A DNA stretch of 12,420 nucleotides, from positions 1 through 12,420 of IMG/VR virus record IMGVR_UViG_2585427758_000001; one strand, written 5' to 3'. Shown here piece after piece: positions 936-10,706 of this stretch; within the stretch, counting starts at the first letter, position 1; each line of letters opens with the position of its first letter. The notes beneath the pieces were generated by a model. It was given only the letters and a program-made list of their open reading frames with translations, was not told the DNA's origin and made no database searches. Both the position numbers and the translations under genes were made by a program. This DNA is from a virus. Its lineage: Duplodnaviria; Heunggongvirae; Uroviricota; Caudoviricetes.

Positions 936-1280
936 ATGACTCAAAACTATGAACTGATTGTGAAAGGGATCCGCAATTTTGAGAATAAAGTTACGGTAAC
1001 TTTAGCGTTACGGGACAAAAAACGCTTTGACGGTGAAATTTTTGACCTGGACATCTCGCTGGACCGTGTTGAAGGTGCCGCGCTGGAGTTTTATGAGGCA
1101 GCAGCCAGAAGGAGCATCAGACAGGTCTTCCTGGATGTTGCTGCCGGGTTATGTGAAGGGGATGAGCAGTCGCCGGAAAAGCGCCCCGTAATTTTAGAGG
1201 CGCAGGATGTGTTGATAACCTACAGAGGAAAACTACCGGGAATAATTACGGGTTCTCTGAAGAGTCCGCCGAAATGGTAA
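936..1280 (+). CDS. Hypothetical 114-aa protein, possibly DUF1327/YdfR-like (a family found between holin and endolysin in E. coli lambdoid prophages)
   Basis: Intact ORF with SD-like GGGGAGAG upstream, sitting 4 nt after the holin stop. Family assignment is from memory of the Qin prophage essQ-ydfR-rrrQ order, not a computed match. Region is AT-richer than the head genes. Confidence 0.65.
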   Translation: MTQNYELIVKGIRNFENKVTVTLALRDKKRFDGEIFDLDISLDRVEGAALEFYEAAARRSIRQVFLDVAAGLCEGDEQSPEKRPVILEAQDVLITYRGKLPGIITGSLKSPPKW

Positions 1281-1518
1281 TTTTACCAGCATATTTTTCA
1301 TCCAGTAATACAGCAAGCCGCCTGAAAGAGTCTTGTTGTTCCTGAGACCATTTGGGATTGCATGATTCAAACTGGATTGATGCCAGCGTTGATTGCATCT
1401 GTTCCCTTGGAATTGAGAATGCCAGATATGAGAAGGCGACGGTAAGGGTATTCACGTCTTCCCGAAGCCTGGAAATGCTGTCGAGCAACTCCTGTAGAGA
1501 AATGGTGTTATTGTCCAT
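1246..1518 (-). CDS. Hypothetical 90-aa acidic protein on the opposite strand, convergent with the 936..1280 gene
   Basis: ATG at minus-strand 1518 is preceded by GAGGA with a 6-nt spacer (good SD). Balanced, non-repetitive composition. 3' end overlaps the 936..1280 ORF by 35 nt. The competing + ORF 1352..1558 has no RBS and is Cys/Ser-rich. Confidence 0.45.
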   Translation of the reverse strand: MDNNTISLQELLDSISRLREDVNTLTVAFSYLAFSIPREQMQSTLASIQFESCNPKWSQEQQDSFRRLAVLLDEKYAGKITISADSSENP

Positions 1519-2247: not shown

Positions 2248-2286
2248 AAAACCCCGTTTGTTGGCAGCAAGCGGGGTTTTGTTTTT
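2248..2286 (+). terminator. Strong rho-independent terminator downstream of the endolysin
   Basis: A-tract, then stem CCCCGTTTGT (2252-2261) pairing with GCAAGCGGGG (2267-2276) including two G-U pairs, 5-nt loop, then TTTTGTTTTT (2277-2286). Confidence 0.7.
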
Positions 2287-2799: not shown

Positions 2800-3267
2800 A
2801 TGAACCGTGTTCTGTGTGTGGTGATTATTGTCATGCTGGTGGCCTGTGGTGCGCTTAGTCTGGGGCTGAATCATTACCGTGATAACGCCATTACCTACAA
2901 AGCCCAGCGCGACAAAAATGTCAGAGAACTGAAGCTGGCGAACGCGGCAATTACTGACATGCAGATGCGTCAGCGTGATGTTGCTGCGCTCGATGCAAAA
3001 TACTCGAGGGAATTAGCCGATGCGAGAGCTGAAAATGAAACTCTTCGCGCTGACGTTGCCGCTGGTCGTAAGCGCCTGCGTATCAACGCCACCTGTCCAG
3101 GTCCCGTGCGTGAAGCCACCGGCACCGCCCGCGTGGATAATGCAACCGGCCCCCGACTGGCAGACACCGCTGAACGGGATTATTTCACCCTCAGAGAGCG
3201 GCTGATGACGATGCACAAGCAACTGGAAGGGGCGCAGGAATATATCCGCACTCAGTGCCTGAAATAA
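2800..3267 (+). CDS. Rz: Inner-membrane spanin Rz (i-spanin), 155 aa
   Basis: N-terminal TM anchor ([20 protein letters not shown]), then [17 protein letters not shown]...[16 protein letters not shown], closely matching lambda Rz as recalled. ATG 2800 preceded by GGTGGTGA. The ORF-track GTG at 2716 would add an unsupported leader. Confidence 0.9.
3020..3205 (+). CDS. Rz1: Outer-membrane lipoprotein spanin Rz1 (o-spanin), embedded in the +1 frame of Rz
   Basis: Signal peptide with lipobox LVVSAC, Pro-rich mature part [32 protein letters not shown] matching lambda Rz1 as recalled; wholly inside Rz in another frame. True start may be Met1 (3020) or Met6 (3035). Confidence 0.85.
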
Positions 3268-3484: not shown

Positions 3485-3535
3485 TTTTGCGGGTCCTTTC
3501 CGGCGATCCGGGCCGTTACGGGGCGGCGACCTCGC
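3485..3535 (+). other. cos: cos site: cosQ-like region and cosN with the 12-nt cohesive-end sequence GGGCGGCGACCT (3521-3532)
   Basis: Exact lambda cohesive-end sequence at 3521-3532, preceded by GCGGGTCCTTTCCGGCGATCCG...GTTACG resembling the lambda right end and followed by CGCGGGTTTTCGCTATTTATGAAAATTTTCCGG as at the lambda left end (from memory). Confidence 0.85.
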
Positions 3536-9614: not shown

Positions 9615-9640
9615 AAAGGCCGCCTGTGCGGCTTTTTTTA
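9615..9640 (+). terminator. Hairpin plus U-tract between D and E (terminator or attenuator-like)
   Basis: GGCCGC (9618-9623), loop CTGT, GCGGCT (9628-9633), then TTTTTTT; sits in the D-E intergenic spacer. Confidence 0.4.
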
Positions 9641-9652
9641 CGGGATTTTTTT

Positions 9653-10678
9653 ATGTCGATGTACACAACCGCCCAGCTGCTGGCGGCAAATGAGCAGAAA
9701 TTTAAGTTTGATCCGCTGTTTCTGCGTCTCTTTTTCCGTGAGAGCTATCCCTTCACCACGGAGAAAGTCTATCTCTCACAAATTCCGGGACTGGTAAACA
9801 TGGCGCTGTACGTTTCGCCGATTGTTTCCGGTGAGGTTATCCGTTCCCGTGGCGGCTCCACCTCTGAATTTACGCCGGGATATGTCAAGCCGAAGCATGA
9901 GGTGAATCCGCAGATGACCCTGCGTCGCCTGCCGGATGAAGATCCGCAGAATCTGGCGGACCCGGCTTACCGCCGCCGTCGCATCATCATGCAGAACATG
10001 CGTGACGAAGAGCTGGCCATTGCTCAGGTCGAAGAGATGCAGGCAGTTTCTGCCGTGCTTAAGGGCAAATACACCATGACCGGTGAAGCCTTTGATCCGG
10101 TTGAGGTGGATATGGGCCGCAGTGCGGCGAACAACATCACACAGTCCGGCGGCACGGAGTGGAGCAAGCGTGACAAGTCCACGTATGACCCGACCGACGA
10201 TATCGAAGCCTACGCGCTGAACGCCAGCGGCGTGGTGAATATCATTGTGTTTGACCCGAAAGGCTGGGCGCTGTTCCGTTCCTTCAAAGCCGTCAGGGAG
10301 AAGCTGGATACCCGTCGCGGCTCTCATTCCGAACTGGAGACAGCGGTAAAAGACCTGGGCAAAGCGGTGTCTTATAAGGGAATGTATGGCGATGTGGCCA
10401 TCGTCGTGTATTCCGGACAGTACGTGGAAAACGGCGTCAAAAAGAACTTCCTGCCGGACAACACGATGGTGCTGGGTAACACTCATGCACGCGGTCTGCG
10501 CACCTATGGCTGCATTCAGGATGCGGATGCACAGCGCGAAGGCATTAACGCCTCTGCCCGTTACCCGAAAAACTGGGTGACCACCGGCGATCCGGCGCGT
10601 GAGTTCACCATGATTCAGTCAGCACCGCTGATGCTGCTGGCTGACCCTGATGAGTTCGTTTCCGTACAACTGGCGTAA
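9653..10678 (+). CDS. E: Major capsid protein gpE, 341 aa
   Basis: MSMYTTAQLLAANEQKFKFDPLFLRLFFRESYPFTTEKVYLSQIPGLVNMALYVSPIVSGEVIRSRGG... matches lambda E as recalled; the ORF-track start at 9626 lies inside the upstream hairpin. Confidence 0.95.
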   Translation: MSMYTTAQLLAANEQKFKFDPLFLRLFFRESYPFTTEKVYLSQIPGLVNMALYVSPIVSGEVIRSRGGSTSEFTPGYVKPKHEVNPQMTLRRLPDEDPQNLADPAYRRRRIIMQNMRDEELAIAQVEEMQAVSAVLKGKYTMTGEAFDPVEVDMGRSAANNITQSGGTEWSKRDKSTYDPTDDIEAYALNASGVVNIIVFDPKGWALFRSFKAVREKLDTRRGSHSELETAVKDLGKAVSYKGMYGDVAIVVYSGQYVENGVKKNFLPDNTMVLGNTHARGLRTYGCIQDADAQREGINASARYPKNWVTTGDPAREFTMIQSAPLMLLADPDEFVSVQLA

Positions 10679-10680
10679 TC

Positions 10681-10706
10681 GTGGCCCTTCGGGGCCATTT
10701 TCTCTC
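10681..10706 (+). terminator. Stable UUCG-tetraloop hairpin followed by a U/C-rich tract between E and FI
   Basis: GTGGCCC (10681-10687), loop TTCG, GGGCCAT (10692-10698), then TTTCTCTCT; the pyrimidine tract is not a clean U-run, so terminator function is uncertain. Confidence 0.35.

Follow-up and report, generated by a model that had tools for sequence, protein, structure and literature searches.

From established lambda biology, terminators inside a Q-dependent late operon are expected to be transparent to the Q-modified polymerase. In the absence of Q, transcripts from PR' end at intrinsic terminators (PMC7547250). The same paper cites Term-seq data for EHEC Sakai in GEO, with the accession given as GSE143631/GSE14363. 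The closest described relatives of the site considered here are lambda tR' with its 6S RNA and, likened by description only, StxS (PMC7547250), which may be missing from Rfam. These are intrinsic terminators within a lambdoid late unit under Q control, where transcription stops without Q and reads through with Q, and where the terminated RNA has a hairpin and a U tail; here this behavior is predicted. However, tR' lies immediately past PR' and its short RNA is constitutive, whereas our site is located several kb further on, behind the genes for the holin and the endolysin, and has no adjacent promoter.

A second group of possible relatives is formed by small RNAs of prophage late regions. HnrS, PasA/PasC/PasD, AgvB and AsxR share with the present element the prophage location, the presence in multiple copies, the end at an intrinsic terminator, and the position within a few kb around the lysis cassette. 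They are enriched in strains with many lambdoid prophages, and PasA and PasC are placed by the same literature between the esterase and holin genes, in antisense orientation (PMC13502914, PMC8550237, bioRxiv 10.64898/2026.05.13.724894, PMC4104026). HnrS (EcOnc10-12) is a 66-nt RNA from the 3' end of a ynfO-like gene situated between Rz and terminase, on the opposite strand. AgvB and AsxR occupy the moron site after PR' (PMC4104026).

Moron-associated terminators of lambdoid phages were described by Juhala et al. (2000), as cited in PMC4104026. As far as that citation goes, the likeness is that they coincide with a mosaic junction beside small accessory genes in the late operon. However, a moron as described there has its own promoter upstream and a terminator downstream of the inserted gene, whereas here the terminator precedes the variable genes. 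The site does not qualify as a moron: the scan gave no promoter-like site, and the terminator travels together with the endolysin, not with the cargo. Finally, Hfq-dependent small RNAs derived from 3'UTRs share the terminator of the parent mRNA (Chao et al. 2012, cited in PMC4104026). To the extent that they are described in the citing paper, the region studied here is similar in extending from a stop codon as far as a terminator, in carrying an A-rich/U-rich Hfq-like signature, and in containing a conserved loop predicted to be unpaired. The A-R-N motif is described as a site for the distal face of Hfq (PMC4104026).

The terminator between R and Rz

The window, that is, the whole analyzed stretch of 12,420 nucleotides, covers the late region of an E. 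coli prophage that is lambdoid and resembles Stx phages. Many E. coli strains have chromosomal prophages with 100% identity to positions 2158-2450, and in an identical copy R is annotated as 'lysozyme rrrQ'. The features of the region are as follows.

38-565: C-terminus of a NanS-p-type esterase
716-931: class II holin of the phage-21 type
936-1280: DUF1327/YdfR protein
1246-1518, reverse strand: open reading frame
1624-2157, + strand: R, SAR-type endolysin of 177 aa (Pfam Phage_lysozyme, 1.3e-23; phrog_7 endolysin, 2.5e-61)
2155-2157: stop codon of R
2158-2286, + strand: untranslated module of 129 bases, reaching from the R stop codon through the T-run
2158-2247, + strand: conserved untranslated stretch of 90 bases, the 5' part of the module (alignments)
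2199-2214, + strand: small hairpin GGAU-AACACGAA-AUCC (RNAalifold)
2238-2252, + strand: A-rich leader AAUAAAAGUAAAAAC (read from the sequence)
2248-2286, + strand: intrinsic terminator (structure, strength, covariation)
2313-2447, + strand: first gene past the terminator, TTG start, for a small membrane protein of 44 aa (phrog_6632, E 1.4e-13)
2450-2581, 2584-2700 and 2712-2798, + strand: three small hydrophobic ORFs (phrog_4906, phrog_1115/3246/4493)
2800-3267, + strand: Rz i-spanin (Pfam Phage_lysis, 2.1e-51; phrog_13, 2e-76)
3035-3205: Rz1, embedded in Rz, with lipobox VSAC (ORF list)
3521-3532: lambda cos, with Nu1, A and the head genes (portal, capsid) beyond

The sequence at 2248-2286 is AAAACCCCGTTTGTTGGCAGCAAGCGGGGTTTTGTTTTT. 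The core stem is formed by pairing of CCCCGTTTG (2252-2260) with CAAGCGGGG (2268-2276), which gives nine base pairs, one of them G.U; two further pairs could lengthen it and leave a 3-nt loop. The base of the stem is lengthened by four A-U pairs (2248-2251 with 2277-2280). The full stem is formed by 2248-2260 and 2268-2280, with the loop at 2261-2267, and the U-run occupies 2277-2286. This tail, TTTTGTTTTT / UUUUGUUUUU (U4GU5), has a tail score of 4.67. In the consensus scan the stem has 15 pairs, six of them G-C, and is the longest in the window.

The minimum free energy of the hairpin is -22.6 kcal/mol, compared to -11.4 +/- 2.6 for 200 dinucleotide shuffles, none of which was as stable (z -4.38). 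In our own implementation of the d'Aubenton-Carafa score, where values above 0 predict a terminator, the site scores +28.2. Strict criteria (at least 9 bp, at least five G-C pairs and at least eight T within the next ten bases) select two sites in the window, starting at 650 and 2252, and none in 60 dinucleotide-shuffled windows. The structure at 2248-2286 is a real intrinsic-terminator structure, far beyond chance. An earlier note on this DNA had claimed a GC-rich hairpin with a T-run at this place and proposed terminator prediction with a free-energy calculation as a check, and both the claim and the check came out positive.

The same note placed the hairpin directly after the endolysin gene, which is incorrect: 90 conserved untranslated bases separate the R stop codon from the stem. 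The terminator is co-directional with the genes and noncoding, being 90 nt past the R stop codon and 26 nt ahead of the next start codon. It does lie between R and Rz/Rz1, as had been noted, and in that sense splits the lysis cassette. However, such an arrangement is normal for this endolysin family and is no peculiarity of this prophage.

Two open reading frames cross the terminator, a 70-aa GTG extension running through the stem and a 31-aa ORF on the minus strand (2175-2270). Both are unlikely to be genes. The 70-aa extension is given as a CDS in ON470597 and is not called by PGAP in the identical copy. A bidirectional terminator was considered and rejected, as the hairpin formed on the minus strand has a weak fold of -14.2 kcal/mol with a score of 0.2, and there is no convergent gene here.

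Another + strand terminator, equally strong, is situated just 5' of the holin gene (648-676, score +31.7). A similar hairpin was found 3' of the ORF in the capsid position (10681-10698).

The 129-base module and its conservation

A BLAST search with 2158-2300 as the query yielded matches in 2,071 of 5,426 complete E. coli genomes, and at least 80% of the query is present in 2,022 of the 5,426 (37%). The number of copies per genome has a median of 2 and a maximum of 12, and nearly all copies are chromosomal. The module is also found in Stx phages and, in a diverged form, in Salmonella phages. One copy resides in prophage Sp4 of strain Sakai (NC_002695.2, 1184948-1184820, minus strand). Nothing is annotated at the copies except occasional hypothetical proteins. 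The module is a widespread, multi-copy, unannotated noncoding element.

A set of 90 homologous loci was compiled from a pattern scan of viral contigs and from the BLAST loci. A homologous R gene with 67-100% amino acid identity precedes the module in 89 of them, and one locus has no R match. Loci of the E. coli type show constant spacing, with the module beginning immediately past the R stop codon. Salmonella phage SPN3UB has an additional ORF for a 36-aa membrane protein behind the endolysin and ahead of the module, which here starts at the stop codon of that ORF. As the start of the module is tied to a stop codon across loci, the unit is taken to extend from the R stop codon through the T-run, a length of 129 nt in the window. 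The Qin prophage of K-12 and three prophages of EPEC E2348/69 do not have the module, and in all of them the endolysin gene overlaps Rz.

The 5' part of the module (2158-2247) contains conserved blocks AGAATATTTTGCT, AAAAATG, CGGATAACACGAAATCC and AAGTGAATAAAAGTAAAAA with variable patches between them. The 3' ends vary: in the 90 loci a shared 5' part of about 88 nt is followed by one of three types of hairpins. Type A (66 loci) has the hairpin of the window with a canonical and conserved T-run. Type B (20 loci), the type of 933W and VT2-Sakai where an antirepressor gene comes next, has a non-homologous hairpin GGCACC-GUAAU-GGUGCC, then UUUGUCAUUU. Type C (four loci) has CCCCGG...CCGGGG, then UUGCAUUUU. 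All three hairpins fold at about -22 to -25 kcal/mol, with z from -3.3 to -4.7. However, the terminator scores differ, with +28.2 for type A in the window, +10.4 for SPN3UB and negative values for types B (-0.8) and C (-12.2). As 24 of the 90 loci have other hairpins and poorer T-runs, it may be the stable 3' hairpin, rather than efficient termination, that is always kept.

When 30 distinct variants of types A and C are aligned, RNAalifold recovers the terminator stem. A direct count over the 13 stem pairs gives 96.9% of cells paired. When the 3' partner is slid by one to three columns, a control that tests the structure as a whole, the fraction falls to 39-58%. Two stem pairs show changes on both sides. 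At the pair 103/117, 20 sequences have UG, six AU, two UA and one GC; at the pair 105/115, 28 have UA and one CG. The commonest form of the pair 103/117 is G.U, which becomes a C-A mismatch on the minus strand, and the stem is therefore much weaker there (-14.2 vs. -22.6 kcal/mol). This asymmetry means that selection acts on the + strand RNA.

Conservation was measured as mean column identity in 54 unique type A loci, with the 5' part scored without the 15-mer used to collect the loci. It equals 0.90 in the terminator, the same as in the first and second codon positions of R, and 0.72 in the third codon positions of R; the 5' part of the module has 0.81. In comparison with the diverged loci of the Salmonella type, the values are about 0.73 for the terminator part and about 0.64 for the whole module vs. 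0.47 for R third positions; the 5' part has about 0.60, or about 0.53 without the anchored 15-mer. By these alignments, the terminator is clearly under constraint, and the constraint on the 5' part lies in blocks and is, overall, only modest.

Within the 5' part, the small hairpin at 2199-2214 (columns 45-48/57-60) is 100% paired in the RNAalifold analysis, with changes only from G-C to G-U. Its AACACGAA loop, with a predicted unpaired probability of about 0.9, is conserved in variants from E. coli as well as from Salmonella; the loop is a candidate site for interactions in single-stranded form. Independently anchored copies have the exact 15-mer in 82 of 119 cases; the others carry single-base changes, including an A-to-G change that retains a U.G pair. 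The A-rich leader AAUAAAAGUAAAAAC contains five consecutive A-R-N triplets immediately 5' of the stem, and its last bases take part in the A-U extension of the stem. Columns 85-96, corresponding to this leader, are invariant in the 30 variants.

Three further candidates in this region were discarded. An 8-codon mini-ORF (ATG 2178 to TAA 2204) was rejected as a leader peptide, as several variants have no ATG. A palindromic helix in a variable patch (2182-2193) was rejected, being only 65% paired. The overlapping 108-aa ORF 1916-2242 is unsupported as a frameshift product: one variant has a 1-nt deletion, and by our own estimate the open 28-codon tail is expected by chance with a probability of about a quarter.

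Search against Rfam 15 at gathering thresholds produced no match in the window, including models of AgvB, AsxR, STnc100, Esr41 and sok. In five related loci none of the matches fell on the element, and STnc100, sok and tRNAs were found elsewhere in these loci. The best sub-threshold candidates (PyrR, OhsC and the rnk leader) have at most 22 bits against thresholds of 50-54, and align to the terminator only. Among them, OhsC RNA (RF02495) has a nearly identical AAAGUAAAA(A)CCCCGUU with a G+C-rich terminator stem, and there are small hydrophobic ORFs nearby in both cases. However, the score is 21.6 bits vs. the gathering threshold of 50 (E 0.58), the similarity is confined to the terminator, and the orientation relative to the hydrophobic ORFs is different.

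The element is also distinct from the described RNAs of the same region. PasA and PasC were rejected: both northern probes are absent from the window at up to three mismatches, and the position and strand differ. HnrS was rejected because the Sakai Sp12 coordinates map to ECs_2255, and the corresponding interval of the window contains cos and Nu1 and no ynfO-like gene. AgvB, AsxR, STnc100 and Esr41 are dismissed by the lack of matches of the respective Rfam models in the window. No prior description of the site was found in Rfam 15, the prophage sRNA literature, reviews, or a survey of Stx-phage lysis cassettes, which is weak evidence.

The junction behind the T-run and access to the downstream genes

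Conservation falls sharply at the end of the module. The mean column identity drops from 0.90 in the terminator to 0.68 just past the T-run and then to 0.2-0.5 further on. Among the BLAST matches listed, most stop at query base 129-132 (2286-2289), and those of the closest relatives run through base 143. The distance from the T-run to Rz falls into discrete classes of about 174, 210, 314, 363, 518 (the window) and 1300 nt, and is never zero. Taken together, the drop in identity, the ends of the matches and the discrete distances indicate that the end of the T-run is a mosaic junction before an exchangeable cargo of small genes. By this comparison of sequences it is a recombination junction, or hot spot, for the exchange of genes encoding small membrane proteins.

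The cargo between the T-run and Rz consists of one to several small membrane ORFs, four in the window. ORFs 2584-2700 and 2712-2798 are paralogous, and the three small ORFs in 2450-2798 have no Pfam match. The first ORF, 2313-2447, has its own Shine-Dalgarno box GGGAGG (2302-2307), and its relatives in an Stx1 phage and in SPN3UB start with GTG. PGAP annotates nothing at 2313-2447 in the identical RefSeq copy. The suggestion that the terminator marks a module boundary where the peptide cluster was inserted is thus correct with regard to the boundary. However, the terminator itself belongs to the R side and not to the inserted cluster: it is the 3' end of a module that is conserved together with R across the 90 loci.

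Essential late genes on the same strand lie beyond the terminator: Rz/Rz1, cos, Nu1, A, and the portal and capsid genes. The earlier note left two routes to their expression, antitermination read-through or a separate promoter in 2287-2350. The promoter scan revealed no sigma-70-like site on the + strand across the window, and neither inspection by eye nor the scan produced a credible -35/-10 pair in the 3' end of R, in the module or in 2287-2350. Moreover, the spacer between the T-run and the TTG start at 2313 has only 26 nt and is too short to hold a promoter and a leader. The separate promoter is thus not supported, whereas Rz/Rz1 and the packaging genes would need read-through, which is left as the sole plausible route.

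The read-through polymerase is most plausibly Q-modified, as judged from the gene order in relatives. One genome that contains 2158-2450 in identical form has a gene of the Q-type antitermination protein 6.3 kb upstream on the same strand; the window itself ends short of Q. A methyltransferase gene, tRNAs, and the esterase, holin and R genes lie between this Q gene and the module. In SPN3UB, Q is just 5' of the lysis genes, about 1.4 kb upstream of the element. As terminators of this kind are expected to be transparent to the Q-modified polymerase, the presence of the terminator does not imply any unusual regulation.

Probable termination overridden by Q and alternative explanations

The best explanation, to which we assign a probability of about 0.6, is that 2248-2286 is a genuine intrinsic terminator, forming the 3' end of a module of about 130 bases that abuts the stop codon of the SAR endolysin across a large family of lambdoid prophages of the Stx-phage-like kind, and that it is overridden by Q. 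It is a conserved terminator of a known kind and, most likely, a conditional one. We infer actual termination at this site, read-through in the presence of Q, and silencing and stabilizing roles of the hairpin. A polymerase not modified by Q, which would have leaked past tR' or started at promoters of 'moron' genes inserted upstream, would allow formation of the G+C-rich hairpin followed by UUUUGUUUUU, and the transcript would be released at about 2284-2286. The small membrane proteins, spanins, and packaging and head genes would then stay silent in the lysogen. After induction, the Q-modified polymerase from PR' would ignore the signal and proceed into the downstream genes. The hairpin would still form in the read-through RNA and could shield the processed S-R message at its 3' end. 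In addition, the T-run ends at the recombination junction behind which different small-gene cargos were swapped. The two terminators, 648-676 and 2248-2286, fit a layout that would stop un-antiterminated transcripts both before and after the lysis genes. On the other hand, termination alone does not explain the 90 conserved nucleotides upstream.

The module might be an undescribed RNA regulator of the prophage, either a 3'UTR-derived small RNA binding Hfq or an element acting in cis on the next gene of a small membrane protein, but the probability of this reading is low. In its trans-acting form, for which the odds seem equally low, the module 2158-2286 would be released from the endolysin 3'UTR by termination and RNase E processing, bind Hfq with its A-R-N run and U tail, and pair with mRNAs of the host or phage through the AACACGAA loop. 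It would be analogous to the prophage late-region RNAs StxS, HnrS and PasA-D. Like the HnrS and Pas RNAs, the module is multi-copy, and 37% of complete E. coli genomes contain it. The extent from the stop codon to the terminator, the Hfq-like signature suggested by the five A-R-N triplets and the U-rich tail, and the loop that is conserved and predicted to be unpaired agree with this reading. The 141-nt region 2150-2290 has a strong overall fold of -47.1 kcal/mol (z -5.3), and the 5' part persists alongside each of the three kinds of 3' hairpin. However, there is no promoter-like site in the + strand scan, R is expected to be barely transcribed in the lysogen, and at large divergence the 5' part outside the 15-mer is only slightly above R third positions (about 0.53 vs. 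0.47). Single-base changes around the loop occur in 31% of the independently anchored copies.

The published RNA data and the target scan are also negative. The Sp4 copy matches none of 63 EcOnc Hfq-bound orphan RNAs of EHEC Sakai, where sites less than 100 nt from a same-strand CDS were excluded. The neighbors ECs1096, ECs1094, ECs1095 and ECs2259 are all missing from the RNase E-CLASH supplements. Because of these filters and of multi-copy mapping, both negatives are weak. In a duplex scan of the module against 12 translation-initiation regions of the window, only ORF 2313 stood out (1 of 40 shuffles), with bases 2167-2179 able to pair with 2316-2330. However, this duplex loses significance on correction for multiple testing and is not kept in the Salmonella variants; the target scan within the window as a whole is not significant.

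It is improbable that the hairpin serves mainly as an intercistronic stabilizer, blocking 3'-to-5' exonucleases after downstream cleavage and thus prolonging the half-life of the holin-endolysin message. A hairpin about 90-110 nt past R is indeed kept in all three types, with T-run scores from +28 to -12, and an RNA-level role is the only one left in lytic growth, as the Q-modified polymerase would not stop there. The similar hairpin after the ORF in the capsid position (10681-10698) points in the same direction. However, a pure stabilizer does not need the canonical T-run conserved in 66 of the 90 loci, and a stabilizing role is compatible with termination.

The arrangement into two transcription units, in which a promoter at 2287-2350 or a regulated attenuator drives the small ORFs, Rz/Rz1 and possibly the packaging genes, is very unlikely. 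The strong Shine-Dalgarno box of the first downstream ORF (2302-2307) and the mosaic junction past the T-run could be cited in its favor. However, a promoter is contradicted by the lack of sigma-70-like matches on the + strand and by the 26-nt spacer. As for an attenuator, no anti-terminator pairing has support: the upstream helix (columns 28-39) is only 65% paired, long-range pairing to the U-run is mostly G.U, and the mini-ORF 2178-2204 loses its ATG in several variants.

Finally, the module could hardly be a functionless 'linker' that hitch-hikes with the endolysin and provides a patch of homology for recombination of mosaic phages: the mosaic junctions on both sides of the variable cargo and the 5' part near the third-codon level at large divergence would agree with it, but compensatory changes keep the stem paired, the G.U asymmetry favors one strand, non-homologous hairpins of types B and C take the same position, and the terminator is conserved as strongly as non-synonymous positions.

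As a terminator, the site is ordinary: extra terminators help to silence lethal lysis genes and structural genes in the lysogen. The residual interest is in the unannotated 129-nt module of the endolysin 3'UTR and in the small membrane-protein cargo behind it. Annotation pipelines ignore the module or lay spurious ORFs across it. If it is made as a stable RNA, it would join the small RNAs of prophage late regions that rewire host regulation in pathogenic E. coli. Such a regulator, if true, would be present, in multiple copies, in more than one third of sequenced E. coli, and thus would be a widespread addition to StxS, HnrS, Pas and AgvB/AsxR.

Sequences behind the main terminator

The terminator at 2248-2286 (+), which closes the module 2158-2286, is followed by short genes preceding Rz:

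2313-2447, + strand: gene of a 44-aa membrane protein (phrog_6632); it starts at a TTG codon preceded by a good Shine-Dalgarno box
2450-2798, + strand: three more small hydrophobic ORFs within the lysis cassette, from PHROG families of unknown function

The 44-aa gene is conserved in Stx1 phages and in Salmonella phage SPN3UB. It has no PGAP annotation in an identical copy, and in one phage record it is mis-annotated as a 70-aa ORF crossing the terminator. None of the three ORFs in 2450-2798 has a Pfam match; the second (2584-2700) is a paralogue of the third (2712-2798). The number of small ORFs between the terminator and Rz ranges from one to several among the relatives.

The start of the module (2167-2179, UUUGCUAAUCAAU) can base-pair with 2316-2330 (AUUGAUUUUAGCAAA), the first codons of the 44-aa ORF, forming 13 base pairs with a two-nucleotide bulge. 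A 10-bp version exists in the common E. coli variant. The pairing is not kept in the Salmonella variants, and it may be due to chance.

Stx2 phages of the 933W/VT2-Sakai type share the 5' module, but the hairpin behind it is a different one (GGCACCGTAATGGTGCC, then TTTGTCATTT); an antirepressor gene and Rz come next, in this order.

L003 (the VT2-Sakai locus) 2590-2650: region of the different hairpin, also found in 20 other loci

Other hairpins and genes of the window

Two further G+C-rich or strong hairpins and two genic features, one of them a reverse-strand ORF, were listed:

648-683, + strand: second strong intrinsic terminator (predicted), hairpin AGAGCCATCAGTACTTAACTGGTGGCTTT, then TTTTATTG; d'Aubenton-Carafa-type score +31.7
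716-727: dual start of the holin gene, with ATG codons at 716 and 725 (M-Y-Q-M)
1246-1518, - strand: 90-aa ORF matching phrog_2411, with no Pfam match
10681-10698, + strand: G+C-rich hairpin GTGGCCCTTCGGGGCCAT, then TTTCTCTCTG; score +9.3

The predicted terminator 648-683 occupies the gap between the esterase gene, which ends at 565, and the holin gene, which starts at 716. The antisense sRNAs PasA and PasC of EPEC are encoded in this esterase-holin interval; probes for these gave no match at this position in the window. The dual start of the holin resembles the arrangement in holin/antiholin pairs of lambdoid phages.

The reverse-strand ORF lies between the holin and YdfR genes on one side and the endolysin gene on the other. 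It overlaps the DUF1327/YdfR gene by 35 nt, at that gene's 3' end, and its direction is convergent with late transcription.

The hairpin 10681-10698 directly follows a 350-aa ORF (9626-10678) in the major-capsid position, and is likely an RNA-stabilising or weak terminator element.

The junction after Rz

3521-3532: lambda-type cosN, GGGCGGCGACCT, with lambda-like flanks, followed by Nu1 and A

The lysis region of E. coli CFSAN061761 is otherwise identical to that of the window, but other genes are joined after it: a TonB-like gene, a ynfO-like gene, and genes for an HNH endonuclease and for a small terminase that differs from the window's. Thus there is a mosaic junction after Rz.
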